A stretch of DNA of 32,000 bases from Flavobacteriaceae bacterium (lineage in GTDB: Bacteria > Bacteroidota > Bacteroidia > Flavobacteriales > Flavobacteriaceae). This document shows, piece by piece, positions 9,923-29,872 of the stretch. The DNA lies in contig OZ245049.1 of NCBI GenBank assembly GCA_965224465.1, forward strand, positions 1,950,001 through 1,982,000, read 5' to 3'. The number at the start of each line of letters is the position of its first letter. The first letter of the stretch is position 1. The notes under the pieces are model-generated. The model ran no database searches. It saw nothing but the letters and a program-made list of their open reading frames with translations, and was not told the origin of the DNA. The position numbers and the translations under genes are program-made.

Positions 9923-11386
9923 TTATTTTCCTAGTTGATTTAAAAGTTCTGTAACCGTTTCGAAGTCATCAAAATGATTCTTGACTCCGTTTATATCTTG
10001 ATAATTTTCATGCCCTTTCCCTGCAATTAATATAATATCACCAGAAACTGCCATTTTACATGCTGCTTTTATGGCTTGCTTCCTGTCTGCTATCACAAGT
10101 GTTTTAATAGCATCTTGTGCTTCCACTCCAGCTTCTATTTCAGAAATAATCACAGAAGGATCCTCTGTACGCGGGTTGTCTGAAGTAAAAATTACTTGAT
10201 CACTCAACTGCGCGGCAATTGCTCCCATTTTTGGACGCTTGCTTCTATCTCTATCTCCTCCACAGCCTACAACAGTCAACACTTTTTCGTTTCTTGTTCT
10301 AATAGCTGATATTGTTTGAAGTACATTTTTTAAAGCATCTGGAGTATGCGCATAATCCACAATCACCGTAATTCCTGAAGGAGAAACTACATGTTGAAAT
10401 CGTCCTGAAACGCTTTTTAAATTACTGATCAACTTCAATCCCTCTAACTCCTCCATACCCAACAATTGAGTCACTCCAAAAATTGCCATTAAATTATACC
10501 CGTTGAAGTGTCCAATTAACTGTGTCCACAATTCATGTTTGTTCGCAATCAATAACATTCCAGCAAACGAACTCTCTAAAATTTTGCCTTTAAAATCAGC
10601 CAATGTCTTTAAGGCATAGGTGTGTTTTTTTGACTTCGTGTTTTGCAACATAAACAGTCCATTTTTATCATCGGCATTTACCAATGAAAAAGCAGATTTA
10701 GGCAATTGATCAAAAAACATTTTTTTGGTATCCCTATATTCTTTAAATGTGTTGTGATAATCTAAATGATCGTGCGTTAAATTCGTAAACACCCCTCCTT
10801 CAAAAGACAAGCCTACAGTTCTTTTCTGATGAATCCCATGAGAACTCACTTCCATAAAACAGTACTCACAACCATTCTTCACCATCAAATCAAGATATTT
10901 ATTGATTGTCAAAGAATCTGGCGTTGTATGAGAAGTACTATAAGAAACCTCATCAACCATAATTTTAATTGTAGATAACAAGCCTACTTTATACGCTGCA
11001 TTTTTATATAAATGATACAACAATGTAGCAATGGTAGTTTTACCATTTGTCCCTGTAATACCTACCAGTTTTAATTTTCGAGAGGGATTCTCGTAATAAT
11101 TAGCTGCCATTACTGCAAGAGACTCCGAAGAATCACCTACCTGAATATACACTACACTTTCTAATAATATTTCAGGTAAGACCTCACAAACAACAACTAC
11201 AGCACCGTTTTTAACAGCATCGTTTATATAAATATGACCATCCACAACAGATCCTCTCTGCGCCACAAAAACATCGTTTTTCTGTACAGATTTTGAAGAA
11301 AACAAAATTTCTCGAATCTCCACCGCTACATCTCCAATAATTTGGACAATAGCTACGTCTTTCAATATGTCTTTTAACACTTTCAT
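9923..11386 (-). CDS. murE: UDP-N-acetylmuramoyl-L-alanyl-D-glutamate--2,6-diaminopimelate ligase
   Basis: 487-aa ORF with the P-loop [10 protein letters not shown]. The DNPR motif ([10 protein letters not shown]) is typical of meso-DAP-adding MurE. There is a TAATG stop/start overlap with ftsI. Confidence 0.93.
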
Positions 11387-13365: not shown

Positions 13366-13366
13366 C

Positions 13367-13693
13367 TTATTTTTTCTTTTTATTCAAAACTCTTATAAGT
13401 GTAGGAGGCTCCACACTGGGACCTAACCCTAACGTATCAACTCTTTTCCGAATACCAGATTCCAACTTTAACTGCATCGAAATTGTTCTAGTATCTACAA
13501 AATGCGCTTGCAATTCTTTAATCTCTTTATTCAACTTCGCTATTTCCATCACTTTAGCATCGGAACGATGAGAACTAGAAATCATGATCAAAATCAACAA
13601 CACCACAAAAAGAATCACACGCCAATTCCGCATACCTTCTTCTTCTGTTAAAAACCTACCTTTTAACACATTAAAAAACCAATTCTTAATCAA
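13367..13693 (-). CDS. FtsL-like small bitopic cell division protein
   Basis: 108-aa ORF with one TM segment (VILFVVLLILIMISS) followed by a coiled-coil-like stretch (KVMEIAKLNKEIKELQAHF). It occupies the canonical ftsL slot between rsmH and ftsI. Confidence 0.7.
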   Translation of the reverse strand: MIKNWFFNVLKGRFLTEEEGMRNWRVILFVVLLILIMISSSHRSDAKVMEIAKLNKEIKELQAHFVDTRTISMQLKLESGIRKRVDTLGLGPSVEPPTLIRVLNKKKK

Positions 13694-13698
13694 CCTTA

Positions 13699-14601
13699 TT
13701 AACTTTTAGTTGCTATTCTTAATTTTGCACTGCGTGCTCTGTTGTTTTCTGCAATTTCATCTTTTGTAGGAATTATCAATTTCCCTACCTTCTTAAGAGG
13801 TACTTTTATATTTCCAAAAAAATCTTTCTCTGGCAAACCTTCAAATTTACCGTGCTGAATAAAACGCTTTACCAAACGATCTTCTAACGAATGATAAGAG
13901 ATAACACTAAGCCTCCCTGTATCCGTAAGAATCTCCGGTATTTGGCTTAAAAAATCCTTTAACACCTCTAACTCTTGATTTACCTCTATGCGTACCGCTT
14001 GATAAATCTGTGCTAAAATCTTATGCTCTTTACTCGCTGGCAAAAATGGTTTTAAAACCGTTTTTAACTCAAAACTTGTTTTTATACGATTCTCTAAGCG
14101 CGCTGCTACTATTTTTTTTGCAATCGCTCTCGAATTCCTTAGCTCTCCATACTGAAACAATATATTGGCTAAATCTTCTTCCGAATAGCTATTGATAATT
14201 TTTGATGCGGACAAATCACTTTGTTGATTCATTCTCATATCTAAGTCACCATCAAATCGAGTTGAAAAGCCTCGTTCAGAAGCATCGAATTGATGAGAAG
14301 ACACCCCTAAATCTGCCAATACACCATCTACTTTTTTTACACCATAAAAGCGTAAAAATCGTTTTACATTTTTAAAATTTTCTTCTATTAAAACAAAGCG
14401 GCTATCCTCAATTTTATTTACTACAGCATCTGGGTCTTGATCAAAAGCAAACAAACGCCCTTGCTCCCCTAAACGACTCAATATTTCTCTAGAATGTCCT
14501 CCGCCACCAAAAGTCACATCTACATACACTCCGTCAGGATTAACATTTAACCCATCTACACTCTCCTTTAACAATACTGGATTATGATACATCTTCATCA
14601 A
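13699..14601 (-). CDS. rsmH: 16S rRNA (cytosine1402-N4)-methyltransferase
   Basis: 300-aa ORF with YHNPVLL and the SAM motif VDVTFGGGGHS. The start could be any of three nearby Met codons (14601, 14598 or 14592). Confidence 0.9.
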   Translation of the reverse strand: MMKMYHNPVLLKESVDGLNVNPDGVYVDVTFGGGGHSREILSRLGEQGRLFAFDQDPDAVVNKIEDSRFVLIEENFKNVKRFLRFYGVKKVDGVLADLGVSSHQFDASERGFSTRFDGDLDMRMNQQSDLSASKIINSYSEEDLANILFQYGELRNSRAIAKKIVAARLENRIKTSFELKTVLKPFLPASKEHKILAQIYQAVRIEVNQELEVLKDFLSQIPEILTDTGRLSVISYHSLEDRLVKRFIQHGKFEGLPEKDFFGNIKVPLKKVGKLIIPTKDEIAENNRARSAKLRIATKS

Positions 14602-15049
14602 AATTTAAATTCCCCATTACTTCTTCTGCCAAATCACCAAAGTCTTCGTCGTCATTAATAAACGCCTCGTACTTATCTTTATCCCAAACTTCAATTTTTT
14701 CTCCCTGACCTATCAATACTATGTTTTTGGAAATACCAGAAAACAGTAATAAATCCTTTGGAATTAAAAATCGAGCTGCCGAATCAAGCTCTACTTTTTT
14801 TATTCCCGCTGTCAATTGACGCACAAACTTGTCGACTTTACGATTAAACCTATTCAATTTCCCTACTTTCTTCATCATCACATCCCATTCATTTTTCGGG
14901 TACAAATCCAAACAAGATTCAAAGACCGATCTTTTCAACACAAAGCCATCTTCCAACACCTCAGCAAGTTGCTTTCGAAACGACATAGGCATAGCCACAC
15001 GCCCTTTGGCGTCTGCTTTGCACTCATATGTCTCGATTAAATTGATCAT
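14582..15049 (-). CDS. mraZ: Transcriptional regulator MraZ
   Basis: The track ORF runs to 15103, but the MraZ-like N-terminus begins at MINLIETYECKADAKGRVAMP (ATG at 15049). There is a second half-domain, DSAARFLIP. The 54-nt upstream extension would cover the promoter and GTGGG repeats, so the shorter start is preferred. Confidence 0.85.
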   Translation of the reverse strand: MINLIETYECKADAKGRVAMPMSFRKQLAEVLEDGFVLKRSVFESCLDLYPKNEWDVMMKKVGKLNRFNRKVDKFVRQLTAGIKKVELDSAARFLIPKDLLLFSGISKNIVLIGQGEKIEVWDKDKYEAFINDDEDFGDLAEEVMGNLNFDEDVS

Positions 15050-15070
15050 TACGAACCTATAGTTTGACAT

Positions 15071-17468: not shown

Positions 17469-18755
17469 TTATAATTTTAAAGCGCTTTTCATTTTTCCTT
17501 TAATTTCCTCTAAACATAAATTACCAATACTTCCTTCATGCGTATGGTTCACTATTTTTTCTGGATTAAAAGTTCCTTCTTGTATTTCTTTACCCACTAT
17601 TTTATAAGCATCTCTAAAAGGAATCCCTTGTTGCACTAAAGTATTCACTGCTTCCACACTGAATAAGTACGTGTATTTATCATCCTCCAAAATAGTTGTA
17701 TTTACCTGTATATTTCCTAAGGAATAATGGAGCATTTCTAAACAAGATTTTAAAGTTGAAAAATTAGGAATTAAACTCTCCTTTAACAACTGTAAATCTC
17801 TGTGGTAACCACTTGGAAGATTATTTGAAATCAACGTCATTTCATAAGGCATTGCCTGTAGCTTATTACATTTCCCTCGGATCAATTCAAAAACATCTGG
17901 GTTTTTCTTGTGTGGCATAATACTAGACCCTGTAGTTAACTCGTCTGGAAATGCAATAAATCCAAAATTCTGACTCATGTACAAACAAATATCCATACTC
18001 ATTTTAGACAAGGTTGCCGCCACACTACTCAACGCAAAAGATATAGATTTCTCCAGTTTCCCTCGTCCCATTTGTGCTGCTACAGAATTAAATTTTAACG
18101 TCTTAAAACCTAATAATTGGGTAGTCATCGTTCTGTCAATTGCAAATGAACTTCCATAACCAGCCGCAGAACCTAAGGGATTCTGATCAGCTACTTTTAT
18201 GGCTGCATTTACAAAATACATATCGTCTATCAAACTCTCTGCATAGGCAGAAAACCACATTCCAAAAGAAGACGGCATTGCTATTTGCAAATGCGTATAC
18301 CCTGGCAACAAAACTTTTTTATAACGTTCTGCCAAGGACATCAACAGGTCAAATAAGGCTTTTACATCGCTTTTAACTTCCTGTAATTTATCTTTAGAGT
18401 ACAACTGAACATCTACCAACACTTGATCATTTCTAGAACGAGCTGTATGAATTTTTTTTCCTGCATCTCCCAATTTCTCCGTTAATAAATACTCAATTTT
18501 TGAATGTACATCTTCAAAAGTATCTTCAATAACAAAAGTACCTGCCTTTATTGTTTCAGCGATACTTCCAAGCTCTTTCACCAACGCATCACACTCATCG
18601 CTTGTCAAAACACCAATGCTCGACAACATTTTTGCATGTGCAATATTTCCAATCACATCATATTTTGCCAATTCTAAATCTAACTCTCTATCATTACCTA
18701 CGGTAAAAATATCTATTTTCTTATCGGTTGAAAACCCTTTATCCCAAAGTTTCAT
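17469..18755 (-). CDS. argH: Argininosuccinate lyase
   Basis: 428-aa ORF with the fumarate-lyase superfamily signature GSSIMPHKKNPD. It is the last gene of the arg cluster. Confidence 0.95.
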   Translation of the reverse strand: MKLWDKGFSTDKKIDIFTVGNDRELDLELAKYDVIGNIAHAKMLSSIGVLTSDECDALVKELGSIAETIKAGTFVIEDTFEDVHSKIEYLLTEKLGDAGKKIHTARSRNDQVLVDVQLYSKDKLQEVKSDVKALFDLLMSLAERYKKVLLPGYTHLQIAMPSSFGMWFSAYAESLIDDMYFVNAAIKVADQNPLGSAAGYGSSFAIDRTMTTQLLGFKTLKFNSVAAQMGRGKLEKSISFALSSVAATLSKMSMDICLYMSQNFGFIAFPDELTTGSSIMPHKKNPDVFELIRGKCNKLQAMPYEMTLISNNLPSGYHRDLQLLKESLIPNFSTLKSCLEMLHYSLGNIQVNTTILEDDKYTYLFSVEAVNTLVQQGIPFRDAYKIVGKEIQEGTFNPEKIVNHTHEGSIGNLCLEEIKGKMKSALKL

Positions 18756-18833
18756 TTCTTATCTATTTTATTTATTTGTACTTGTAATATTGATATGCAT
18801 AATTTTTAATCAAAACAAATTTAACACCAAAAA

Positions 18834-18987
18834 CATATCCAAATGACGGTTTAGAAATGAAAATTATTTTTTTATTTTAGCTAGGCGAAAAACGGATGGA
18901 TAGCCTTAGGCTATCGTTCTGTTTTTCAATAACGCTAGAACGTATAACAATCTATTTATATTGGTTATTTTAGATTTTAATTGGCAT
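18834..18987. repeat. Intergenic repeat family, copy A (long form with a roughly 80-bp structured insert)
   Basis: The 5' module CATATCCAAATGACGGTTTAGAAATGAAAAT aligns to 29045-29075. The 3' module AACAATCTATTTATATTGGTTATTTTAGATTTTAATTGGCAT aligns to 29077-29115 and 29941-29980. The interior holds the hairpin GAAAAAC-GGATG-GATAGCC-TTA-GGCTATC-GTTCT-GTTTTTC. Confidence 0.8.
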
Positions 18988-18993
18988 TATTTA

Positions 18994-20052
18994 TTACTGC
19001 ATCACTTTGGACAATAACTCCACATAAATCTCTATCCCTTCTTCAATTTCATTTATATAGATAAACTCATTCGCCGAATGTGACCTTAGCGTATCTCCTG
19101 GCCCCATTTTTACTGACGGGCAGCTCAAAACAGCCTGGTCAGACAAGGTTGCCGAACCATACGTCTTACGTCCCATGGCAATACCAGCTTGCACTATTTT
19201 ATGATCTAACGGAATGGAGGAAGAATTTAAGCGCAAAGATCTTGCCTGTAAATCACATACCGTATGCTGTTGAATAATTTCTAATACCTCTTGGTTAGAA
19301 TAAGCATCGGTCACACGAACATCTACTACAAAATCACATATTGCTGGAATTACATTGTGTTGGTGTCCCGCATTTATCTGAGTCACTGTCATACGAACCT
19401 CTCCTAATGATTTTGATGTTTTTGAAAACTTATAAGATTGAATCCACGCCACATCTTTGAGCGCTTGATAAATAGAATTCACACCCAAACCATGCGCTGC
19501 ATGCCCTGGCTCTCCAATAGATTTTCCATCAATCACCAACAGTCCTTTTTCTGCAACCGCCATTTCCATTTGCGTAGGCTCTCCAACAATTGCTACATCA
19601 ATTTTCGGGATAATAGCCAACATAGAATTCAATCCATTAGGACCAGAACTTTCCTCTTCTGCCGATGCTACTATCACCAAATTATACGCCAAATCCGCTT
19701 GCTCATAAAAATAAGTAAACGCAGCTAATAAAGACACCAAACAACCGCCTGCATCATTACTTCCTAGACCAAACAATTTACCGTCTTTTACAAAAGGATC
19801 CAGTGGATTATTCGTGTAACCTTTATTCGCCCTTACCGTATCGTGATGTGAATTCAATAAAATAGTAGGTTTACTCGCATCATAATGTTTATTTACTGCC
19901 CATACATTATGTACTGAGGTCTCAAAAGGAATGTGATATTTCACAAACCAATCCGCTATGTGTTTTGCCGTTCCTTGTTCCTCTCCAGAGAGAGATTGTG
20001 TTTTTATAAGTTTTTTAAGCAATTCAATTGCTTCTTTTTTTAATTCTTTCAT
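18994..20052 (-). CDS. argE: M20-family metallohydrolase (N-acyl-ornithine/citrulline deacylase, ArgE-like)
   Basis: M20 motifs NSHHDTV and GLGSNDAGG, within the arg operon. The likely start is MKELKKEAIELL (ATG at 20052), which leaves 1 nt between it and the argB stop. The track ORF extends to 20085. Confidence 0.85.
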   Translation of the reverse strand: MKELKKEAIELLKKLIKTQSLSGEEQGTAKHIADWFVKYHIPFETSVHNVWAVNKHYDASKPTILLNSHHDTVRANKGYTNNPLDPFVKDGKLFGLGSNDAGGCLVSLLAAFTYFYEQADLAYNLVIVASAEEESSGPNGLNSMLAIIPKIDVAIVGEPTQMEMAVAEKGLLVIDGKSIGEPGHAAHGLGVNSIYQALKDVAWIQSYKFSKTSKSLGEVRMTVTQINAGHQHNVIPAICDFVVDVRVTDAYSNQEVLEIIQQHTVCDLQARSLRLNSSSIPLDHKIVQAGIAMGRKTYGSATLSDQAVLSCPSVKMGPGDTLRSHSANEFIYINEIEEGIEIYVELLSKVMQ

Positions 20053-20053
20053 T

Positions 20054-20830
20054 CTATAATTTAATATTAGTACACGTTGTAGCATCTGATGAAATCATGT
20101 TTATATTCCCAATTTTAATAGTTGACACCCCTCGGTGTAATGCGCTAAAGCAATTTTCTAATTTAGGCAGCATCCCCTCAGAAATAATTCCTTTTTCCAA
20201 AAAATCAGCATAGGTTTTTGTGTTTAATTGTGTAATCACCGAATTCAGGTCTTTGATATCTGTCAACACTCCTTGCAGCTCAAAACAATACAGCAGTGCG
20301 ACTTCAAAACTAGCACTCATAGCAATTGCAACTTCACTCGCAATAGTATCCGCATTTGTATTGAGTAATTGACCTGCACCATCGTGTGTCAGAGCACAGA
20401 AAACGGGTGTGAGACCTGACAAAATCAATGCTGTAATACTTTTTGAATTTACGTATTTTACATCCCCTACAAAACCATAATCAATGGTTTTTACAGGTCG
20501 CTTTTCAGACACAATCGTATTTGCATCTGCACCTGTTAAGCCAATAGCATTACACTTATTTTTCTGCAATCCAGCTACGATATTTTTATTCAACAAACCT
20601 GCATAAGTCATGATAGCAACATCGAGATTCGCTTTGTCAGTAATTCTTCTTCCATCAACTAAGGTAGGACTCAATCCTATTTTTTTTGCAAATTCTGTAG
20701 CAGATTTACCACCACCGTGTACTAGAATTTTAGGACCTTGTATTTTTGAAAACCGAACGAGAAACAGTGCTAGCTCTTTTGTATCTTCTATCACATTTCC
20801 GCCTATTTTCACAATAGTTAATTTAGCCAT
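20054..20830 (-). CDS. argB: Acetylglutamate (N-acylglutamate) kinase
   Basis: Amino-acid kinase motifs VKIGGNV and VHGGG. The likely start is MAKLTIVKIGG (ATG at 20830), 6 nt after the argF' stop. The track ORF extends to 20866. Confidence 0.9.
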   Translation of the reverse strand: MAKLTIVKIGGNVIEDTKELALFLVRFSKIQGPKILVHGGGKSATEFAKKIGLSPTLVDGRRITDKANLDVAIMTYAGLLNKNIVAGLQKNKCNAIGLTGADANTIVSEKRPVKTIDYGFVGDVKYVNSKSITALILSGLTPVFCALTHDGAGQLLNTNADTIASEVAIAMSASFEVALLYCFELQGVLTDIKDLNSVITQLNTKTYADFLEKGIISEGMLPKLENCFSALHRGVSTIKIGNINMISSDATTCTNIKL

Positions 20831-21773
20831 TTCCCAGTATTTTTTTAAGTACAATTTGCGCTGCAAACTCTCTGTTTTCAGCTTGTTTTATGTGCAACGA
20901 ATTATCAGAATCCAATACCTCATCCGCCACCACAACATTTCTTCGAACAGGCAAGCAATGCATAAATTTTCCGTTATTTGTCAATTTCATTTTTTTACTT
21001 GTAACCATCCAAGCAACGTCTGTACACTTAACTTTACCATAATCATTATAAGAACTCCAATTTTTCACATACACAAAATCTGCGTTTTCAAATGCTTTTT
21101 CTTGATTGTATTCAATAGGAATATCTTTCGTGATTTCAGTATTCAATTCGTAGCCTTTCGGATGTGTAATCACAAAATCCGCCTCTTGCAATTGCATCAT
21201 TTTAACAAATGAATTTGCCACTGCATGAGGCAATGCTTTAGGATGTGGCGCCCAAGAAAGCACAATTTTAGGTTTTCGACCAATAATCTTATTTTCCTCT
21301 ATGGTAATGGCATCTGTCAAAGCCTGTAATGGGTGCCCAACTGAGCTCTCCATATTTACAATTGGAACAGAAGCATATTTCACAAAACTACGCAACACCA
21401 ACTCAGACTCATCAATTTTCTTATCTACCAAACTAGCGAAAGCACGAATCCCAATAACATCTGCATATTGTGATACAACTTGCGCTGCTTCTTTTACATG
21501 TTCTGATTTCCCTTGATCCATCACCGTTCCATCTTCGTATTCCAACGCCCAACCATCTGTACCAAAATTCATCACAATCACATCCATGCCTAAATTCTGT
21601 GCAGCTTTTTGGGTACTCAATCTGGTACGTAAACTGTTATTAAAAAACAATAAACAAATCGTTTTATCAACGCCCAATGTTTTATATTTCAGTTTATCTT
21701 TCTTCAATGCAATGGCATCCTGTACCGTTTCGTTAAAGTTTTCTAAATCATTAATGCTTGTAAAATGTCTCAT
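20823..21773 (-). CDS. argF': N-acyl-L-ornithine carbamoyltransferase (ArgF'-type, acetyl/succinyl-ornithine transcarbamylase)
   Basis: 316-aa ORF with SLRTRLS, HPLQ and HCLPVRRN. It lacks the ornithine-binding DxxxSMG loop of classical OTCase. By my recollection of the Bacteroides fragilis ArgF' sequence, it is similar along its whole length. Confidence 0.88.
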   Translation of the reverse strand: MRHFTSINDLENFNETVQDAIALKKDKLKYKTLGVDKTICLLFFNNSLRTRLSTQKAAQNLGMDVIVMNFGTDGWALEYEDGTVMDQGKSEHVKEAAQVVSQYADVIGIRAFASLVDKKIDESELVLRSFVKYASVPIVNMESSVGHPLQALTDAITIEENKIIGRKPKIVLSWAPHPKALPHAVANSFVKMMQLQEADFVITHPKGYELNTEITKDIPIEYNQEKAFENADFVYVKNWSSYNDYGKVKCTDVAWMVTSKKMKLTNNGKFMHCLPVRRNVVVADEVLDSDNSLHIKQAENREFAAQIVLKKILGNG

Positions 21774-21774
21774 A

Positions 21775-22557
21775 CTATATTGATGTGATTTTTGTAAAAA
21801 CCGAAACCTCGTCTAGGGCTTTGATTAAAAATTGATCCTCTAAACCATTTACTATCCATGTTTCGATACCTGCTTTTTGCGCTATCTGAGCTGCTTTTAT
21901 TTTTGATTGCATACCTCCCGTTCCTCGACTGGATTGCTCTGAAGAAATCTCTTTTTCAATGGCACTAATATCACTGGTTTCCTTTACCGTTTCAGAACAT
22001 CCATTCCGTATAGATTTTTTTGTATACACACCATCTGTATTGGTTCCTATCACTAACAAGTCAACGCTTAACAATACTGCTGTAAGAGCAGCAAGCTTAT
22101 CATTATCACCAAACTTAATTTCATCGGTTGCTACGGTATCATTTTCGTTGATGATAGGAATGTAATTATTAGCCACTAAAATATTGATCGTATTTACAAT
22201 ATTGTCACGCGATTGTTTTTTTTCAAAATCAGAGTAAGACAATAGACATTGAGACGTTAACAGTCCCAACTCTCTAAAATTTTCTTGAAAAATACGCATT
22301 AAATGAGGTTGCCCAATAGATGCCAATGCCTGTTTTACATTAATTGCTTCTCCTTTGCTCTCCAACTGTACAAACTGCTTGGCAGCTGCAATGGCGCCAG
22401 AACTCACAATAATAAATTCATACGCATCACTCAAGGATTTGATTTGGCGTGCAATGTCTTCTATTTTCCCTCTAGAAATATAATCAGACTCTTTGGTCAA
22501 TACATTGGTTCCTATCTTGAGTAGGATTCTTTTTTTATCTCGTTTGTCCATTTCCAA
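21775..22557 (-). CDS. proB: Glutamate 5-kinase (short form, no PUA domain)
   Basis: 260-aa amino-acid-kinase-fold ORF with LLKIGTNVLT, SSGAIAAA and GDNDKLAA. It overlaps the proA stop. Confidence 0.9.
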   Translation of the reverse strand: MEMDKRDKKRILLKIGTNVLTKESDYISRGKIEDIARQIKSLSDAYEFIIVSSGAIAAAKQFVQLESKGEAINVKQALASIGQPHLMRIFQENFRELGLLTSQCLLSYSDFEKKQSRDNIVNTINILVANNYIPIINENDTVATDEIKFGDNDKLAALTAVLLSVDLLVIGTNTDGVYTKKSIRNGCSETVKETSDISAIEKEISSEQSSRGTGGMQSKIKAAQIAQKAGIETWIVNGLEDQFLIKALDEVSVFTKITSI

Positions 22558-23737
22558 AAATATACCATTTATTAGTTACTAAATGTTGCAATCCCATAGG
22601 ACCTCGATGATGCAATTTATCTGTACTTATTGCCAACTCTCCTCCCAAACCAAACTGACCACCATCTGTAAACCTAGTAGAAGCATTGTGATATACAGCA
22701 GCGGCATCCACAGCTGTCATAAATTCTTCTGCTACTTTTTCGTTTTCAGTAACAATCACGGCAGAATGTCCACCTCCATAGGTGTTGATTTTATGAATTG
22801 CTTCTGAATTTGTAGCGACTTGCCCAATTACAATTTTATAATCTAAGAATTCTTCGTACCATACCTGTTCGTTTTCTATCGCAACCACCCCTTCCAAAGA
22901 GCTCATTTTTTCATCTCCTAAAACACGGACATTAGCCAATTCTAATTTTTTTATTAAAACTTTTAAAAAAGTTGCTTTATGAGGCATATTTGCATGAACC
23001 AACACCTTATCTACGGCATTACACGCAGACACCTTGGCTGTTTTTGCATTGAGAATAATTTGAATAGCAGTTTCTACATCAGCCTCCTGATCTACAAAAA
23101 CAAAATTATTCCCCCTTCCACTAACAATTACTGGGCAACGCGCATTTTTCTTTACAAAAGCTATTAATTTTTCACCACCTCTAGGAATAATCAAATCAAT
23201 TTTCTGAGTAGGGTTTTCTAAAAACACCTGCGTTTCAGCTCTTGAAAGGTTTAAATACTCCACCCATTCCGTTGAAATATTACATTGCGACAAAGCCTCG
23301 TGCCATAATGCTACCAATTTCAAATTTGAGTGAATCGCTTCCTTCCCTCCCTTTAACAGAATTTTATTTCCTGATTTAAAAGCAATCCCTACAGCTTCCA
23401 CTGTAACATCTGGACGGGATTCATAAATGATTAAAACAGTCCCAAAAGGCGCCGTTTTATTACTGATTTTTAATCCGTTTTCATGTTTAAAATCATACAA
23501 TTGTTTCCCTAAAGGATCCGATTCATTTGCCAATTCATAAAGAGACATCACCATCTCATTTACCTTCCCATCATCCACTTTTAAACGGTCAAATACCGCT
23601 ATATCATCTCCTTTATAATTGGAAATATCCAAGGCATTTGCTTTTAACAAGTCTTCTTTCCCTGTCGCTATTAATTTTGACATACATAGCAAAACATTGT
23701 TTCTTTGATTGGTTGTTAGCATTTGTGTAGTACTCAT
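22535..23737 (-). CDS. proA: Glutamate-5-semialdehyde dehydrogenase (gamma-glutamyl phosphate reductase)
   Basis: 400-aa aldehyde-dehydrogenase-like ORF with IPRGGEKLI, ACNAVDKVLVH and NASTRFTDGGQFGLG. It overlaps the argD stop by 4 nt. Confidence 0.92.
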   Translation of the reverse strand: MSTTQMLTTNQRNNVLLCMSKLIATGKEDLLKANALDISNYKGDDIAVFDRLKVDDGKVNEMVMSLYELANESDPLGKQLYDFKHENGLKISNKTAPFGTVLIIYESRPDVTVEAVGIAFKSGNKILLKGGKEAIHSNLKLVALWHEALSQCNISTEWVEYLNLSRAETQVFLENPTQKIDLIIPRGGEKLIAFVKKNARCPVIVSGRGNNFVFVDQEADVETAIQIILNAKTAKVSACNAVDKVLVHANMPHKATFLKVLIKKLELANVRVLGDEKMSSLEGVVAIENEQVWYEEFLDYKIVIGQVATNSEAIHKINTYGGGHSAVIVTENEKVAEEFMTAVDAAAVYHNASTRFTDGGQFGLGGELAISTDKLHHRGPMGLQHLVTNKWYIFGNGQTR

Positions 23738-24858
23738 AAGATTTTTTTTAAGGCGGTTATAAAAACATCTATTTCTTTGGTACTAATCGATAAAGGAGGT
23801 AAAATTCTAAGTAATTTTTTATTCATAGCAGCTCCCGTAAATATATGCTCCTCATAAATTAATTTCTTACGTAAATCACCCACTTCAAAATCAAATTCCA
23901 AGCCGATCATAAGCCCTTTTCCTTTGATGTTTTTCACCGCAGGAATACGCATTGCTTGGGCTATAAAATATGCAGAAACAGATTTCACATTCTCCATTAA
24001 TTGTTCCTCTTCTATAATTTGTAAGACTGCCAAACCAGCAGCACACGCCAAGTGATTGCCTCCAAATGTTGTCCCTAACATTCCATAAGTAGCCTTTATA
24101 GATTCGTGTATCAACACCCCTGCCATTGGATATCCATTCCCCATTCCCTTTGCTACGGTAATTATATCTGGTTTTATCTGATGCGCTTGAAACGCAAAGA
24201 AAGTACCACTACGACCATAACCCGATTGGATTTCGTCCAAAATCAATACAGCTTCATACTTCCAACATAATTTCTCCAGCACTTTAAAAAACAAGGTAGT
24301 CCCTTCATCTAATCCACCAACACCTTGAATTCCTTCAATAATAACAGCACAGACATCTCCTTTTTCTAAGTTTTTCTCTAGTAAAAACAAATCGTTTAAA
24401 GGTAAAATAGTCACAGGATTATGCATATTTATTTCTGCTTGAATCTTTTTATTATCCGTAACAGACACGCTTGCTGATGTGCGTCCATGAAAAGAATTCT
24501 CAAAAGAAATAACCCTGCTTTTTCCTGTGGTAAAAGAAGCCACTTTTAAGGCGTTCTCATTGGCTTCGGAACCCGAATTACACAAAAACAAATTATAATC
24601 CTCACAATTGGAAACTTCCCCCAATTTCTTTGCCAACTGTTGCTGTAATGGATTTTGAATGGCATTGGAATAAAACCCAATTGCATCAAGTTGACTTTTT
24701 ATTTTCTCAACATATACAGGATGTGAATGCCCTACAGAGATCACTCCATGCCCCCCGTATAAATCCAAATATTCTTGATTCTTATCATCCCAAACACTAC
24801 TTCCTTTTGCCTTTACAGGAGTTACGTCATACAATGGGTATACATCAAATAAATTCAT
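23734..24858 (-). CDS. argD: Class-III PLP aminotransferase (N-acetyl/succinyl-ornithine aminotransferase)
   Basis: 374-aa ORF with SGSEANE, DEIQSGYGRSG and the PLP lysine context TVAKGMGNG. Confidence 0.9.
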   Translation of the reverse strand: MNLFDVYPLYDVTPVKAKGSSVWDDKNQEYLDLYGGHGVISVGHSHPVYVEKIKSQLDAIGFYSNAIQNPLQQQLAKKLGEVSNCEDYNLFLCNSGSEANENALKVASFTTGKSRVISFENSFHGRTSASVSVTDNKKIQAEINMHNPVTILPLNDLFLLEKNLEKGDVCAVIIEGIQGVGGLDEGTTLFFKVLEKLCWKYEAVLILDEIQSGYGRSGTFFAFQAHQIKPDIITVAKGMGNGYPMAGVLIHESIKATYGMLGTTFGGNHLACAAGLAVLQIIEEEQLMENVKSVSAYFIAQAMRIPAVKNIKGKGLMIGLEFDFEVGDLRKKLIYEEHIFTGAAMNKKLLRILPPLSISTKEIDVFITALKKIL

Positions 24859-24859
24859 A

Positions 24860-25654
24860 TTAAATCTGGTTTATTTTATTAAAAGAAGCCACCAATCCTT
24901 TGATCAATGCACTACTCATTCCTTCATGTTCCATTTCGTTCAATCCAGAAATAGTACAGCCTCTTGGTGTGGTAACTTTATCAATTTCTTGTTCTGGATG
25001 GCTTTCGGATTTCAACAATAAACTAGCAGCACCCAAACACGTTTGGACGGCTAATTGTTGCGCCTCATTAGCATCAAACCCCAACTGAACAGCCCCTTGA
25101 GAAGTTGCACGAATCAAGCGCAACCAAAAAGCAATTCCGCTAGCGCAAATAACTGTTGCGGCCTGCATCAGCTCCTCCTCTACACACATCGTAACCCCCA
25201 AAGCACCAAAAATAGTTTTGGCATAACCTATGTTTTTCTTCCCTTTTAAATTAGCACTTAAGCAAGTCATAGATTCACCTACAGAAATTGCGGTATTTGG
25301 CATGCATCGAATAATAGGTATTCCTTCCCCTAAAAACTCAGAAATCTGTATGATCTTACGTCCAGTAACTACCGATATTACCGTATGTTTTTTAGGATTT
25401 AAAAACGGTTTTATCTCTTTTAAAACTCCTTCTAACTGCGCTGGCTGAACAGCAATAATAATAATATTAGATTTCTTCACCAACTCTACATTATCTGAAG
25501 TCACAGTTACCCTAGGTAATTCAGACCACGAATGCAAAGATTTCACATGTCGTTTAGATAAATATAAAGACATAAAACGAATATCATCATGACTTAAAAT
25601 CCCCAAGGCTATAGAGTAGCCTAAATTTCCGACTCCGATAATTCCTATTTTCAT
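24860..25654 (-). CDS. proC: Pyrroline-5-carboxylate reductase
   Basis: 264-aa ORF with the Rossmann motif MKIGIIGVGNLG and a ProC-like C-terminal dimerisation domain (VTTPRGCTISGL). Confidence 0.9.
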   Translation of the reverse strand: MKIGIIGVGNLGYSIALGILSHDDIRFMSLYLSKRHVKSLHSWSELPRVTVTSDNVELVKKSNIIIIAVQPAQLEGVLKEIKPFLNPKKHTVISVVTGRKIIQISEFLGEGIPIIRCMPNTAISVGESMTCLSANLKGKKNIGYAKTIFGALGVTMCVEEELMQAATVICASGIAFWLRLIRATSQGAVQLGFDANEAQQLAVQTCLGAASLLLKSESHPEQEIDKVTTPRGCTISGLNEMEHEGMSSALIKGLVASFNKINQI

Positions 25655-25666
25655 ATTAATTTTTTT

Positions 25667-26662
25667 TTAAAATGATGATGCTTTTAATTGAAGACCTTCT
25701 TTCTCACAAAGTCCAAACATCAAATTCATATTTTGCACCGCCTGTCCGGAGGCACCTTTTAATAAATTATCAATCACCGTTGTAATAAATAATTGTTTCC
25801 CATGCTTTTCTACATGAATAAAACAATTATTGGTATTAACCACCTGCTTTAAATGCACAGGATTAGTACTCACATGTGTATACGGGGCATCTTTATAATA
25901 GTCCGTAAATAATTGAGATGCTTCTGTTTCTGTTAAATTACTTTCTAAATAAATACTAGCAAAAATTCCCCTAGAAAAATTTCCTCTATTGGGAATAAAT
26001 AAAATATCATCTGTCGTGTTCTTTTGTACAACATCTTTATTTTGCAAGCCTTGTAAACTTTCCGAAATCTCATCTAAATGCTGATGATTAAACGCTTTGT
26101 AGACAGAAAAATTAGCAGACCTCCAACTAAAATGAGTAGTTCCCCCTGGGGAAATACCAGCCCCTGTAGACCCTGTAGTTGCATTTACGTGAATGGTTGA
26201 ATTTAACTTTTGTGCTTTTGCCAAGGGTAAAAGCCCTAATTGTATCGCCGTTGCAAAACAGCCAGGATTTGCAATGTTTGAGGCTTTTTTCACTTCCTCT
26301 TTTTGCATTTCTGGAAGCCCATAAACAAAAGTTCGCCCTCCAAAAACTCGATCTTTCAACAATCTAAAATCATTTGATAAATCAATAATTTTTGTGGTCG
26401 CCGAAAAGTGATGCTCGTTTAAAAAAGCGGTAGAATTCCCATGTCCCAAACACAAGAAAACAACATCCACATTTAAGTTTACAACAGTCGTAAAAGAAAT
26501 CGCTGTTTCTCCTAATAAATCTTGATGCACATCATACAATTTATTACCTCCATTAGATGTGCTATACACAAAATCAATGTGAACATTGTTGTGATGTATC
26601 AACAATCTAATAAGCTCACCTGCCGTATATCCGGCACCACCAATTATACCTACTTGTATCAT
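25667..26662 (-). CDS. argC: N-acetyl-gamma-glutamyl-phosphate reductase
   Basis: 331-aa ORF with GIIGGAGYTAGEL and the catalytic-Cys context NPGCFATA. Confidence 0.93.
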   Translation of the reverse strand: MIQVGIIGGAGYTAGELIRLLIHHNNVHIDFVYSTSNGGNKLYDVHQDLLGETAISFTTVVNLNVDVVFLCLGHGNSTAFLNEHHFSATTKIIDLSNDFRLLKDRVFGGRTFVYGLPEMQKEEVKKASNIANPGCFATAIQLGLLPLAKAQKLNSTIHVNATTGSTGAGISPGGTTHFSWRSANFSVYKAFNHQHLDEISESLQGLQNKDVVQKNTTDDILFIPNRGNFSRGIFASIYLESNLTETEASQLFTDYYKDAPYTHVSTNPVHLKQVVNTNNCFIHVEKHGKQLFITTVIDNLLKGASGQAVQNMNLMFGLCEKEGLQLKASSF

Positions 26663-26664
26663 AC

Positions 26665-27846
26665 TTATGAATTAACGTTGTGATAAATTTTATTTTGTGT
26701 ACTCAATATTTTTATAAACCCTTTAGCATCATCAGCCGTCCAAGCCTTATTCACTTCCCCATATTCTCCAAACTCAGATTTCATTAAATCATGTTTAGAA
26801 TCTATACCATCAATCACAAAATGATACGGCATTAGGGTGACAAATACTTTTCCTGACACTGTTTTTTGAGAATCTGTCAAAAACACCTCAATATTTCTCA
26901 TCACAGGATCTAAATATTGCCCTTCATGGAGCAACATCCCATACCAATTTCCTAATTGCTCTTTCCAATATTGCTGCCATTTGGACAAGACATGTTTTTC
27001 TAACATATGATGCGCTTTAATTGTAACCATAGCGGCAGCAGCTTCAAAACCAACCCTTCCTTTAATTCCTATAATCGTATCGCCAACATGCATGTCTCTA
27101 CCAATAGCAAAAGACGAAGCCAATTTTTCCAATTTCAGAATAGCATCTACTGGACTGTGTAATTTTCCGTTTAGACCAACCAATTCACCTTTTTTAAAAT
27201 GCAACGTAATTTTCATTGGCGCTTGCTCTTGCAATTGACTTGGATAGGCTTCCGAAGGCAAATTCTGATGTGAAGTCAAGGTTTCTACACCTCCAACACT
27301 GGTTCCCCAAAGTCCTTTATTAATAGAATATTTTGATTTTTCCCAAGATGCTTCAACCCCATTTTCTTTTAAATAATCAATCTCTTCTTGTCGCGACAAT
27401 TTCAGATCTCTAATAGGTGATAATATTTCAATTTCTGGCGCTACAGTTTGGAAAATCATATCAAATCTAACTTGATCATTTCCAGCCCCAGTACTTCCAT
27501 GTGCAATATAATCAGCATCAATACTCTTTGCGTAATTCACTACTTCTATGGCTTGAAAAACTCTTTCAGCACTTACAGACAATGGATAGGTATTGTTTTT
27601 CAATACATTTCCAAAAATCATAAATTTGACAGCTTTTTGATAAAAATCCTCTATGATATTTACGCTTTTATGAGAGGTAACACCCATCTGATACGCTTTG
27701 GTTTCTATCACTTTCAATTCTGCTTCCGTAAAACCTCCAGTATTGATTAATACACTGTAAATTTCTAGGTTTTTTTCTTTGGATAAATATTTTACACAAT
27801 ACGATGTGTCCAATCCTCCACTATATGCTAATACTACTTTTTTCAT
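26665..27846 (-). CDS. argG: Argininosuccinate synthase
   Basis: 393-aa ORF with the ATP-PPase motif AYSGGLDTS and GSTGAGNDQVRF. Confidence 0.95.
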   Translation of the reverse strand: MKKVVLAYSGGLDTSYCVKYLSKEKNLEIYSVLINTGGFTEAELKVIETKAYQMGVTSHKSVNIIEDFYQKAVKFMIFGNVLKNNTYPLSVSAERVFQAIEVVNYAKSIDADYIAHGSTGAGNDQVRFDMIFQTVAPEIEILSPIRDLKLSRQEEIDYLKENGVEASWEKSKYSINKGLWGTSVGGVETLTSHQNLPSEAYPSQLQEQAPMKITLHFKKGELVGLNGKLHSPVDAILKLEKLASSFAIGRDMHVGDTIIGIKGRVGFEAAAAMVTIKAHHMLEKHVLSKWQQYWKEQLGNWYGMLLHEGQYLDPVMRNIEVFLTDSQKTVSGKVFVTLMPYHFVIDGIDSKHDLMKSEFGEYGEVNKAWTADDAKGFIKILSTQNKIYHNVNS

Positions 27847-27898
27847 CTTTTACTATTTTAAACATGTAGACTTTCACCTACCATTGTTGTATTTTTTA

Positions 27899-28525
27899 TT
27901 ATATGTTTTTTTTATTCTTTTTTTTCAAAAACAAGGCCTGTTTTATTTTCTTGAGTCTGTTGAGCACCTTAAATTTAGCAGGAGATACTTTTGTGTTTTT
28001 TTCATGTTTCGGATCGTACAACATTCCCGTACACAAACACATTTTTTGCTCCGTTCTCTTTAATACGTCAAAATTCACACAGGTTTTACATCCATCCCAA
28101 AAAGCCTGATCTGAGGTCAACTCCGAAAACGTAACAGGCTGATATCCCAACTCGTAATTTATCTTTAAGACTGCCAAACCAGTGGTAATTCCAAATATTT
28201 TTGCCTGTGGATATTTCTCAATAGAATACTTTAATATTTTTTCCTTAATTTTTTTTGCCAGTCCTCTTTTTCTAAAATCGGGATGTACAATCAATCCAGA
28301 ATTCACTACAAATTCCTTATTATCCCACGTCTCTATATAACAAAACCCCGCAAATACTCCTTTCTCTAAAGCAATCACAGCATTCCCTAATTCAATTTTC
28401 TGAATGATATAAACAGGTGTTCTTTTTGCAATTCCTGTCCCTCTATCCTGGGCCGAAATAGCAATAGTTTCACAAATGAGATCTGCAAATTTTATATGCG
28501 AATTGTTAGCAACTACAATTTCCAT
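27899..28525 (-). CDS. GNAT-family N-acyltransferase, first gene of the arg operon (putative N-acyl-glutamate synthase)
   Basis: It has the acyl-CoA binding motif A HPDFRKRGLAKKI. The likely start is MEIVVANNSH (ATG at 28525); the track ORF extends 48 nt further to 28573. Confidence 0.8.
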   Translation of the reverse strand: MEIVVANNSHIKFADLICETIAISAQDRGTGIAKRTPVYIIQKIELGNAVIALEKGVFAGFCYIETWDNKEFVVNSGLIVHPDFRKRGLAKKIKEKILKYSIEKYPQAKIFGITTGLAVLKINYELGYQPVTFSELTSDQAFWDGCKTCVNFDVLKRTEQKMCLCTGMLYDPKHEKNTKVSPAKFKVLNRLKKIKQALFLKKKNKKNI

Positions 28526-28888
28526 TGCGTTTTTGTATATTTTCCTAAAGCGTATAAAACGATTGTAAAACAATCCTTCTGAATGCTTTTTGGTATTAAT
28601 TATTATGTTTTTTTTGAAATTAAAAGCGGACTCACCACTTTCTTAAAGATATAACGCCCTAGGGGCGACGGCGGTAGCGTCGTAAAGAAATAGATGCAAC
28701 CACAAAAGATACACTAACAGATGTTAGGATATATAAAGCTTGAATGTAAAAAAAATGTTGCAAAATAAAAATGGTACTAATGAAAATAAATAGTTAAACT
28801 TCCCTACTAAAGATTAGCGCAAGGGGCGGCGGCTCTCAAGGCGACAGCGGCGAATGTTTGTAAAACTATATGTATTTATGTTTTTCAT
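28526..28888 (-). promoter_or_regulatory. Long 5' leader of the arg/pro operon with two Arg-codon-rich islands (candidate arginine attenuator)
   Basis: See the leader findings for detail. An ATG mini-ORF sits at 28888-28814 and a second RRYRRRP-stop island at 28703-28659. GC hairpins lie at 28666-28682 and 28655-28667. Everything else in the leader is very AT-rich. Confidence 0.55.
28814..28888 (-). CDS. Candidate leader peptide MKNINTYSFTNIRRCRLESRRPLR (24 aa, six CGC Arg codons)
   Basis: Hand translation, codon by codon, of the reverse complement of 28814-28888. It has an ATG start and a TAA stop, and sits 288 nt upstream of the GNAT/arg operon on the same strand. Confidence 0.5.
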   Translation of the reverse strand: MKNINTYSFTNIRRCRLESRRPLR

Positions 28889-29044
28889 CTGTACAATGAT
28901 ACAACAAATAATTAAACCCGCAAGTAAATGTTTTATTTAATTCTTCCTAAACCACATCATACGCATCAAACTCCAATAAAAAAATCTTCCTATAGACCCC
29001 AACCTCCCTGTTTTATGAATCATAAAAACAAATAATACCAAATA

Positions 29045-29115
29045 CATTTCCAAGTGATGGTTTAGAAATGGAAAATAACCTATTTATATCTGGCATTTTG
29101 GATTGTAGTTGGTAT
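29045..29115. repeat. Intergenic repeat family, copy B (short form with no insert)
   Basis: CATTTCCAAGTGATGGTTTAGAAATGGAAAATAACCTATTTATATCTGGCATTTTGGATTGTAGTTGGTAT joins the 5' and 3' modules of copy A directly. Confidence 0.8.
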
Positions 29116-29335
29116 GACAGAGAATTACACCAAGACCATCGAAATTAACAATAAGAATATCGTTGGACCGCTTGAGTTTTTTTTAAAAAAAAACAACACA
29201 TACCCAGAAACTATTATAGACCTAACGGAAATAACGTCAAGTTTTGGAAGTTTATTGATGATATATGGGGATTGGCTTTTATTTAACAGAACAACTAAAA
29301 GAAACAACCAAGTTTACTTTTTTATATATTTGTAA
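29114..29335 (+). CDS. Hypothetical 73-aa ORF, doubtful
   Basis: Its only support is an open frame with a plausible mixed composition (MTENYTKTIEINNKNIVGPLEFFLKKNNTYPE...). No recognisable motif was found, its ATG lies inside repeat copy B, and a 60-aa ORF is open on the opposite strand. Confidence 0.2.
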   Translation: MTENYTKTIEINNKNIVGPLEFFLKKNNTYPETIIDLTEITSSFGSLLMIYGDWLLFNRTTKRNNQVYFFIYL

Positions 29336-29760
29336 ATGTATTTGTTTACAATAACATTATTTTGTAAACTTAAAGATTTACAAAAAATGAGAAATAAGCC
29401 AAACTCAATGTAAAGGACAGTCTAACGGACATTTTGTCCCTTATAAGCTAAGGGAAAGAAAAGAGTTTTCTTATAAAAAAATAACAGAAAATACGATAGA
29501 AGAAGGATGGAAAATAAAAACGAAATGACAATCGAGTAGACGGCTCTGACTGATATAGCCAGAGTGCGCCTCTCACACCACCGTACATACGAGCTTCGTG
29601 ACGCCTGCCGCTGGGCACATTTCAAAACCAAGAGAATTAAAATTCTCTCAATTTTAAAATGGTAAAAAAAACAGCAGACAGAGTTTAAATTACACAACCG
29701 TCTGTACCCTTTTCGTACAAGTCTAGATTTGGGTTTGGTAGTCTTTAAAATTGGACTTTA

Positions 29761-29872
29761 TTATTCACCTCCTTCTTATTTTTTAGAGGTGTTCATGATA
29801 GCTTCGCAGTTATTCACCTCCTTCTTATTTTTTAGAGGTGTTCATGATAGCTTCGCAGTTATTCACCTCCTT
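29761..29872. repeat. 49-bp direct tandem repeat, about 2.3 copies
   Basis: The unit TTATTCACCTCCTTCTTATTTTTTAGAGGTGTTCATGATAGCTTCGCAG occurs identically at 29761-29809 and 29810-29858. A third copy, TTATTCACCTCCTT, is truncated at 29859-29872. Confidence 0.95.

Follow-up and report, generated by a model that had tools for sequence, protein, structure and literature searches.

Comparison of the leaders of one arginine biosynthetic operon across the Flavobacteriaceae points to translation-coupled sensing of arginyl-tRNA by short open reading frames (ORFs) that end in runs of arginine (Arg) codons. We give this reading a probability of about 60%; translation of the ORFs, ribosome stalling and the direction of regulation are inferred. 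The leader studied here lies in a stretch of 32,000 nucleotides (nt) from a Flavobacteriaceae bacterium (GenBank assembly GCA_965224465.1, contig OZ245049.1, positions 1,950,001 to 1,982,000), called the window in what follows. On the minus strand of the window, an operon that begins with a GNAT gene and continues with argG is preceded by a leader with two Arg-rich ORFs in series, a distal one (ORF1) and a proximal one (ORF2). The latter ends within a small hairpin (H1), beyond which comes a second hairpin (H2).

Orthologous loci, 80 in number (given as L-numbers where they have to be told apart), were gathered through alignment of GNAT homologs in contigs from one genome per species, and 78 of their leaders were usable; five further genera were added beside this set by exact protein look-up. 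The genera covered are Lutibacter, Polaribacter, Tenacibaculum, Galbibacter, Joostella, Robertkochia, Marixanthomonas, Maribacter, Salinimicrobium, Antarcticibacterium, Leptobacterium and Sinomicrobium, together with unnamed Flavobacteriaceae, and a leader with an Arg-rich ORF was found in at least 12 named genera, with divergent peptides. By its GNAT protein, the source of the window is a relative of Lutibacter. Since a CG-rich run yields Arg codons whichever strand is read, an antisense control was needed. When an Arg-dense ORF is defined by an ATG start, a length of 8-60 codons and at least four Arg codons within 10, the operon strand has such ORFs in 67 of the 78 leaders and the antisense strand in 3 of them, and 14 of 1560 dinucleotide shuffles (0.9%) contain one. 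No other of the window's 751 small ORFs (8-60 codons, either strand) is as dense in Arg as ORF1 and ORF2.

No other single argument for the Arg codons as such being the selected feature is as strong as the complementary retention of the distal and the proximal run. If a leader ORF is counted as Arg-rich when at least three of its last 12 codons specify Arg, both ORFs are Arg-rich in 46 of the 78 leaders, the proximal one only in 25 and the distal one only in 7, and no leader is left with neither. An illustration is provided by the Lutibacter leaders that we call type C (L012, L017, L038, L048, L036 and L055), where the proximal run is lost and the distal run is kept. In four of these (L012, L017, L038 and L048, at about 2300-2500) the proximal frame has neither an Arg run nor a stop and stays open through H1 to the GNAT start, and the H2 core GGUGnGUCC is lost too; L036 keeps H1 and H2 with a mere remnant of the proximal run, and L055 keeps H2, with a degenerate GC hairpin where H1 would be. 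These four leaders have arisen naturally and could show which parts of the element are indispensable. In some Lutibacter lineages the distal run is eroding (Arg to Cys) and the proximal run is intact.

The distal ORF is the one that had been singled out in a preliminary description of the window, as an Arg-packed ATG frame of 24 codons on the operon strand, 288 nt ahead of the first gene of an arginine operon, with six CGC codons among its last 12 and forming a sharp GC island in AT-rich DNA. All this holds on reading the sequence. The minus-strand codons are ATG AAA AAC ATA AAT ACA TAT AGT TTT ACA AAC ATT CGC CGC TGT CGC CTT GAG AGC CGC CGC CCC TTG CGC TAA, every Arg among the last 12 being CGC; the stop lies 288 nt ahead of the GNAT ATG at 28525, a start fixed by the length of the GNAT homologs (204-208 amino acids); and the GC content is 0.55-0.65, in a leader of about 25% GC. 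The conservation that the same description had proposed to look for upstream of orthologous GNAT-argG operons, a short ORF with a kept Arg run and an otherwise drifting peptide, was found as well, and examples are MKIYNSNITARIPSRLSGLRRRTR, MITSRRNKLCTTISPSLRLRNRRR, MHTSNKTNQISLRRRRPMRRS and MKIYKLNTTVLTPPPTFRMRRIVR.

The distal ORF is Arg-rich in 53 of the 78 leaders. It is present in the clade of the window, in Lutibacter types B and C, in Polaribacter, Tenacibaculum and Salinimicrobium and in L067 and L068, and is absent from Galbibacter, Joostella, Robertkochia, Maribacter, Leptobacterium, Sinomicrobium and Lutibacter type A, in the last of which its 5' part is fused straight onto the proximal Arg run. 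In 37 loci, from Lutibacter, the window clade and Polaribacter, it has precisely 24 codons, and the distance from its stop to the proximal start is held at 45-59 nt. The peptides differ greatly between genera yet end in Arg runs. Judged by this distribution, the distal ORF would be an optional extra sensor of about two thirds of the lineages, the core of the element lying nearer the operon.

Upstream of ORF1 there is a promoter-like box that resembles the Bacteroidetes -7 promoter consensus, TAnnTTTG (PMC9723704). The arrangement TAnn(T/A)TTG-N5-ATG is kept in Lutibacter, in the window clade, in L067 (TACATTTG) and in L068 (TAGGTTTG). Since the box is only 5 nt ahead of the ATG, its position, from which we take the start of transcription, suggests that the leader mRNA is leaderless or nearly so. 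Farther upstream, about 43 nt from the box, some 20 Lutibacter loci (e.g. L005:2299-2311, L007, L010, L012, L016 and L056) carry the palindrome GTTAATTATTAAA(C), which is absent from the window and, among the loci compared, from genera other than Lutibacter. Between the two ORFs an AT-rich motif is conserved; in the Lutibacter loci it comes about 20 nt past the distal stop and is followed by ATTTTGCAA at the proximal start. We considered this motif as an internal promoter, but it matches the -7 consensus imperfectly.

As judged by comparison of the leaders, the proximal ORF together with H1 and H2 is the nearly universal conserved core. In the window the ORF2 peptide ends in SLRRYRRRP, with Arg in five of the last seven codons. 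The arrangement GTACGNCGN ... CGNCGC is conserved across leaders, and the frame of the Arg codons is open upstream of H1 for a median of 41 codons, compared with 13 and 16 in the other two frames. The start codon lies 28-29 codons upstream of H1 in Tenacibaculum and L079 (ATG), Polaribacter and L068 (GTG) and Lutibacter (TTG), 32 codons upstream in the window clade (TTG), and 36-37 codons upstream in Galbibacter, Joostella and Robertkochia (ATG). The stop falls at +6, within the H1 loop, or at +15, just past H1. The number of Arg residues shifts by whole codons (RRP, RRRP, RRRRP), and the remainder of the peptide drifts.

ORF2 and H1 overlap. The 5' arm of H1 joins the last Arg codon to the first two bases of the codon after it, that for Pro, and of the UAG stop, UA makes the last two bases of the loop and G the first base of the 3' arm. 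Across loci the median folding energy of H1 is -6.8 kcal/mol, and the 10 nt past it contain 5.6 T, against a background of 3.6. In the type C leaders of L017, L038 and L048 the hairpin is stronger (-11.6 kcal/mol) and is followed by 7-8 U in 10 nt. Its sequence is mostly invariant or varies by wobble pairs; in Salinimicrobium and Antarcticibacterium there is a compensatory version, CGCAC-loop-GUGCG, which turns the Pro codon into Thr. As pairing is kept in spite of this change, it is the hairpin, and not the Arg-Arg-Pro motif, that is conserved.

The core of H2 begins 31 nt past the start of H1 in the window and at 31-35 nt across the loci. Anchored stem counting across genera revealed that the outer stem has all six pairs in 32 of 35 distinct variants, with many compensatory changes between the arms (GAAAAC/GUUUUC, GGAGCU/GGCUCC, GGAGUC/GACUCC, GGAGUU/AACUCC, AGAAUU/AAUUCU, GGAACC/GGUUCC). 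The apex, G(G/A)UGnGU(C/U)C across genera, includes the loop stretch GGUGAGUCC and a G-C pair that has A-U in its place, both bases having changed, in 5 of 16 and 10 of 38 sequences; past H2 come a short stretch rich in pyrimidines and then a run rich in A. Altogether the last ~130 nt before GNAT read, in every genus, GUACGNCGN, then a stretch rich in U and C, then H1 as CGNCGCCC-loop-GGGY and, beyond a spacer rich in A and U, H2. The exact H1-H2 pattern occurs once in the window, where none is expected, and exactly once in each matching locus (61 of 80), always upstream of GNAT; the element was found only ahead of the arginine operon in every locus examined. A scan of metagenomes for the pattern gave at least 120 matches, and among the matches listed 119 were chance occurrences in GC-rich DNA and one, upstream of GNAT, was genuine. 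A third hairpin, H3, is specific to the window clade, where it lies inside an insertion of about 45 nt between H2 and the GNAT start; in L004 it has a compensatory GAGUGU/AUACUC version, and it may be an additional weak terminator or pause. The features of the leader are collected in Table 1.

Table 1. Leader features and the operon that follows them, in positions of the window; hairpin z-scores are relative to shuffled sequence
Feature	Position	Strand	Description
Promoter-like Bacteroidetes -7 box	28894..28901	-	TATCATTG; 5 nt upstream of the ORF1 ATG
Distal leader ORF (ORF1)	28814..28888	-	24 codons, ATG start, MKNINTYSFTNIRRCRLESRRPLR then stop; six CGC codons
Conserved AT-rich inter-ORF motif	28776..28799	-	GTTTAACTATTTATTTTCATTAG in the window, CAGTTTATTAATTTTCATT in Lutibacter; from alignments and sequences
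Proximal leader ORF (ORF2)	28659..28763	-	34 codons from TTG, MQHFFYIQALYILTSVSVSFVVASISLRRYRRRP then stop
Proximal Arg codon run	28665..28682	-	CGA CGC TAC CGC CGT CGC, then CCC TAG; read directly
H1 hairpin	28655..28667	-	CGCCC-CUA-GGGCG; -7.7 kcal/mol, z = -2.1
U-rich tract after H1	28645-28654	-	TTATATCTTT; the sequence past H1 reads UUAUAUCUUU
H2 hairpin	28622..28642	-	GAAAGU-GG-UGAGU-CC-GCUUUU; -8.8 kcal/mol, z = -4.2; near-invariant apical GGUGnGUCC
H3 hairpin	28561..28575	-	GAUUGU-UUU-ACAAUC, then GUUUUAU (tail to 28554); z = -4.1
Operon downstream of the leader	17469..28525	-	GNAT-argG-argC-proC-argD-proA-proB-argF'-argB-argE-argH; NCBIfam and Pfam matches

The choice of Arg codons in the leaders is a further trait that fits a sensor. 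That CGC is a minor codon had been proposed from a small count, and it stands in a far larger sample: in 28 long ORFs of the window (9572 codons, 3.6% of them Arg), Arg is encoded by AGA (35%), CGT (22.5%), AGG (18%), CGA (13%), CGC (7%) and CGG (4%). Across the leaders, the proximal runs use CGC 157 times, CGT 96, CGA 12, AGA 11 and AGG 2, and the distal runs CGC 120, CGT 31, CGA 8, AGG 7 and AGA 4. The runs are therefore about 90% CGC or CGT (CGY), though AGA is the commonest Arg codon in the genes of the window. Such a preference is consistent with sensing via the tRNA that reads CGU and CGC.

In the mechanism that we propose, translation of ORF1 would begin at the extreme 5' end of the mRNA. 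A shortage of arginyl-tRNA would make ribosomes stall on the CGY runs, and a ribosome held on the terminal run would cover the C-rich end of the ORF and block folding of H1, so that transcription, or survival of the mRNA, continues into GNAT-argG. When arginine is plentiful, the ribosome would reach the stop and leave, H1 (and H2) would fold, and the transcript would be attenuated. Attenuation would consist in a pause or weak intrinsic termination where the U-rich tract follows H1, or in the action of Rho or an RNase on the vacated leader. Candidates for the output step are occlusion of H1, Rho, an RNase or a factor that binds H2. Partition functions were computed with the ribosome mask in four states (free, on the first Arg pair, on the last Arg codon and at the stop). 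In these models H1 is the only element switched by ribosome position: it forms in the free RNA and with a ribosome on the first Arg pair, and is abolished by one at the last Arg codon or at the stop.

Several points weigh against this scheme. The same equilibrium models do not distinguish a ribosome stalled on the last Arg codons from one at the stop, since both open H1, and the first Arg pair is too far upstream for a ribosome stalled there to open it. H1 would likewise be kept open by a ribosome that is tightly coupled but does not stall, and the scheme therefore requires some further kinetic element, which could be Rho, an RNase or a pause of RNA polymerase, perhaps at H2, whose fixed distance suggests a spacing function. 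No conserved, covarying antiterminator partner was found for the arms of H1 or H2, the candidates being weak. The U-tract of H1 is interrupted in most lineages, and the 10 nt after H2 contain 3.0 T, at or below background, with next to no U in Polaribacter. Translation is less certain for ORF2 than for the ATG ORF, because the start is TTG in the window and GTG in Polaribacter, and substitutions by codon position (0.84/0.82/0.93) have no clear periodicity, a result that is weak and uninformative on translation. The CGY bias could in part come from a need for C-rich sequence at the RNA level, and the Lutibacter palindrome could be an operator for a DNA-binding regulator. Finally, the whole scheme is built on comparison and modelling, and its function is a predicted one.

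Other ways in which the leader could work were tried and rejected. To look for a classical antiterminator, each half of H2 was searched for duplex partners in the upstream ORF and in the H1/spacer region. Of 23 representative leaders, 22 could be used, L012 being without the H2 core, and the partners change from genus to genus: the Galbibacter group has UUGGUUCC, Lutibacter type A has none, and ACGCCGC...UUCC occurs in Polaribacter, Tenacibaculum and L068. A hairpin directly after ORF1 is no better than in shuffled sequence (z = -0.6). H2 does not qualify as an intrinsic terminator, as its tail is not enriched in T and is essentially free of U in Polaribacter. Frameshifting at hungry codons through H2 finds no consistent frame, the alternative frames being read through in 34% and 41% of leaders, and a cascade of the erm type, in which a distal stall opens the proximal start, was discarded with the start region 50-97% unpaired in all states. 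Three further ideas were judged by eye: T-box-like or tRNA acceptor-end pairing (UGGN is there in the window clade only), an arginine-binding bulge in H2 like that of TAR (the bulge is absent in Lutibacter) and similarity to an anti-Shine-Dalgarno sequence (only GGUG is conserved). None of the three applies to all genera.

A broader version of the proposal, which we put forward tentatively as a minority possibility, is that the leader is a composite, non-classical attenuator: tandem peptides, the first of them translated from a leaderless mRNA, would report on arginyl-tRNA charging via CGY codons, and H1-H2 would be a new structured RNA with a partner of its own. A regulator that binds RNA, Rho or an RNase could fill this role, and so could arginine directly or a metabolite close to it.

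The remaining explanations, taken in descending order of plausibility, do without the ribosome as sensor of arginyl-tRNA. One could suppose that the H1-H2 RNA has a reader of its own, either a protein, for example a regulator that binds RNA in response to arginine, or a small ligand such as arginine, and that the Arg codons are a by-product of C-rich strands, so that the ORFs sense nothing. Much of what is peculiar to the leader would agree with this: the apical sequence of H2 is conserved far past the needs of a stem while the middle base of its loop varies freely, the spacing between the two hairpins is fixed, H1 is preserved by compensatory change despite the altered residue, L036 and L055 hold on to the structures with a proximal run that is reduced or lost, and no terminator/antiterminator logic could be reconstructed. 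However, the Arg runs are outside the stems, the first Arg pair lying 15-30 nt upstream of H1 and the distal ORF wholly apart from it; the frame is kept open, with a conserved start position and an Arg number that varies by whole codons; a leader that lacks one of the two runs has the other; leaders of the L012 type, without the H2 core, still keep the distal Arg ORF; and no Rfam riboswitch or leader family matches. On balance we regard this explanation as unlikely.

Control of the operon by a DNA-level repressor such as ArgR, with leader elements that serve some role unrelated to arginine (mRNA stability or constitutive pausing), seems very unlikely to us. ArgR/AhrC is the usual regulator of arg regulons, and the Lutibacter palindrome upstream of the -7-like box may resemble an ARG box. 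But the palindrome is confined to that genus and missing from the window, no argR gene is present within the 32-kb window, and a repressor leaves unexplained why Arg-specific, nearly CGY-only codons are kept in complementary fashion before an arginine operon.

Scarcely probable, in our opinion, is that the peptides are arrest peptides that sense free arginine in the ribosomal tunnel and stall at the RRP-stop end when arginine is high. Arg-Arg-Pro beside a stop does recur (RRRP-stop, RRRRP-stop, FPRP-stop, RRPLRA-stop), and a stall at high arginine would give the right regulatory sign if the stalled ribosome promoted attenuation. The change from Pro to Thr with H1 kept in Salinimicrobium and Antarcticibacterium (...RRT-stop, ...RRTFVRA-stop), by which the hairpin and not the residue is under selection, weakens this idea, as do the unconserved sequence upstream of the run, the peptide length of 21-39 residues, the stop at 0 to 6 codons after the Pro codon (with L001, RRRPVGRYIL-stop, as the extreme) and the quite different ends of the distal ORFs. 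The last explanation, a chance open frame in a GC-rich patch, can be dismissed, for although the antisense strand, too, has Arg-dense stop-to-stop segments, CG-rich runs reading as Arg both ways, the requirement of a start codon leaves the sharp difference in counts given above, and conservation across at least 12 genera with divergent sequence refutes it.

As regards the genomic setting, the arg genes share one apparent operon with proC, proA and proB, which lie in between them (window 21775-25654(-)), and a leader specific to arginine would therefore also govern proline synthesis here. Between the arg leader and the gene of a CitMHS transporter there is a GC-richer patch, 29530-29700(-), with a predicted fold of -59 kcal/mol (z = -4.8 against shuffles) and no Rfam or tRNA match; it is an unannotated structured-RNA candidate whose strand assignment is provisional. 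Just downstream of the transporter gene, 29761-29872 is a perfect tandem repeat with a 49-nt unit (2.3 copies, 100% identical). On the minus strand the unit has AAGGAGGTGA and a matching CACCTC inverted repeat, and this motif is a strong Shine-Dalgarno-like sequence, unusual for a Bacteroidetes genome. At the other side of the operon, 9923-15070(-) is the start of an ordinary, standard cell-division and cell-wall cluster (mraZ, mraW/rsmH, a PBP transpeptidase and a Mur ligase).

Arginine is outside the textbook set of amino acids with leader-peptide operons, arg regulons being normally ascribed to ArgR/AhrC. If the proposal is true, leader-peptide control would gain a new amino-acid specificity, and a widespread marine and soil family an annotation rule, by which each genome has a new RNA motif and a pair of small ORFs that annotation has missed. 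The leader would also be a case of sensing by the ribosome without an obvious terminator/antiterminator switch, from an mRNA that is probably leaderless; to our knowledge, the Bacteroidota are a phylum without Shine-Dalgarno-based initiation. The complementary loss and retention of two sensors would amount to a natural experiment on cis-regulatory redundancy, and the leader would serve as a ready reporter for arginyl-tRNA charging in Bacteroidota. Should the composite version be the correct one, then a previously unrecognised RNA family controls arginine biosynthesis in Flavobacteriaceae, replacing or supplementing ArgR.

The preliminary description had presented the distal ORF as a candidate arginine-sensing leader peptide, possibly undescribed, with the architecture of the classical trpL and hisL attenuators. 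The first part is very plausible on comparative grounds, with the amendment that ORF1 is not the core of an element that is larger and less classical; the architecture did not hold, as neither a conserved antiterminator nor a canonical terminator was found. As for novelty, a search of the entire window against Rfam 15, which includes families such as Bacteroid-trp, the His, Leu, Thr and Trp leaders and the guanidine riboswitches, gave no match at gathering thresholds, and at E <= 10 there is nothing beyond two noise matches in 28000-29600. No description of a leader peptide for an arg biosynthetic operon was found in the open-access literature, older comparative genomics in subscription journals being outside its coverage. 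In flavobacteria, leader peptides with canonical terminators have been reported for his, ilv, trp and aromatic operons, and none is given for arginine (PMC9723704, SI D9); a transcriptome paper on B. thetaiotaomicron mentions only generic leader-like small ORFs. On the other hand, small upstream ORFs that sense through Arg codons are already known in principle, in the two cases of speF orf34 and rbfL. What is new is Arg-codon sensing on an arg biosynthetic operon, combined with an unusual anatomy.

The arg leader shares with trpL, hisL, leuL, thrL, pheL and ilvL, with the flavobacterial his, ilv and trp leaders (PMC9723704) and with the Bacteroid-trp family of Rfam a short leader ORF on the operon strand, codons for the cognate amino acid at its 3' end, a drifting peptide and probably a very short 5' untranslated region. 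The proposed sensing principle is that of this class, but the mutually exclusive antiterminator was not found, nor was a canonical terminator with a GC stem and a U run. Further differences are that the cognate amino acid is arginine, that many lineages have two successive ORFs, that the stop lies within or directly past a hairpin of 5 bp to which the last sense codons contribute, and that there is an extra hairpin with a sequence-invariant loop and no Rfam match.

A related principle is found in orf34 of Salmonella speF, where ribosome pausing at consecutive Arg codons under low arginine changes the folding of the mRNA, and where termination by Rho and decay by RNase G take the place of a classical terminator switch (PMC6386406, Ben-Zvi et al. 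2019). Such a factor-dependent output is a plausible model for that of the arg leader, although orf34 belongs to another phylum, controls ornithine decarboxylase, has two Arg codons compared with runs of 4-7 here, and has no similarity to the arg leader in sequence or structure. In S. aureus, a small leader peptide, rbfL, detects that arginine is limiting via slow decoding of particular Arg codons (PMC13009471, Kohl et al. 2026), but it occludes the adjacent rbf ribosome-binding site and so represses under starvation, uses the rare codons AGA and AGG, is 8 codons long and has no link to arginine biosynthesis. The pyrBI leader of E. coli provides another parallel: its ORF overlaps the attenuator hairpin, and it is the ribosome itself, without an antiterminator helix, that blocks the hairpin. 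Its kinetic logic is not directly transferable, as pyrBI senses pausing of RNA polymerase at low UTP, whereas the arg leader would sense stalling of the ribosome. The fungal arginine attenuator peptide, TnaC and SpeFL are likewise small upstream ORFs with a critical 3' end beside the stop, and the output of TnaC and SpeFL runs through Rho. Sensors of this arrest-peptide kind need a conserved peptide and a free ligand; the peptide of the arg leader, in contrast, drifts, and the residue after its Arg run changes together with a compensatory mutation in H1.

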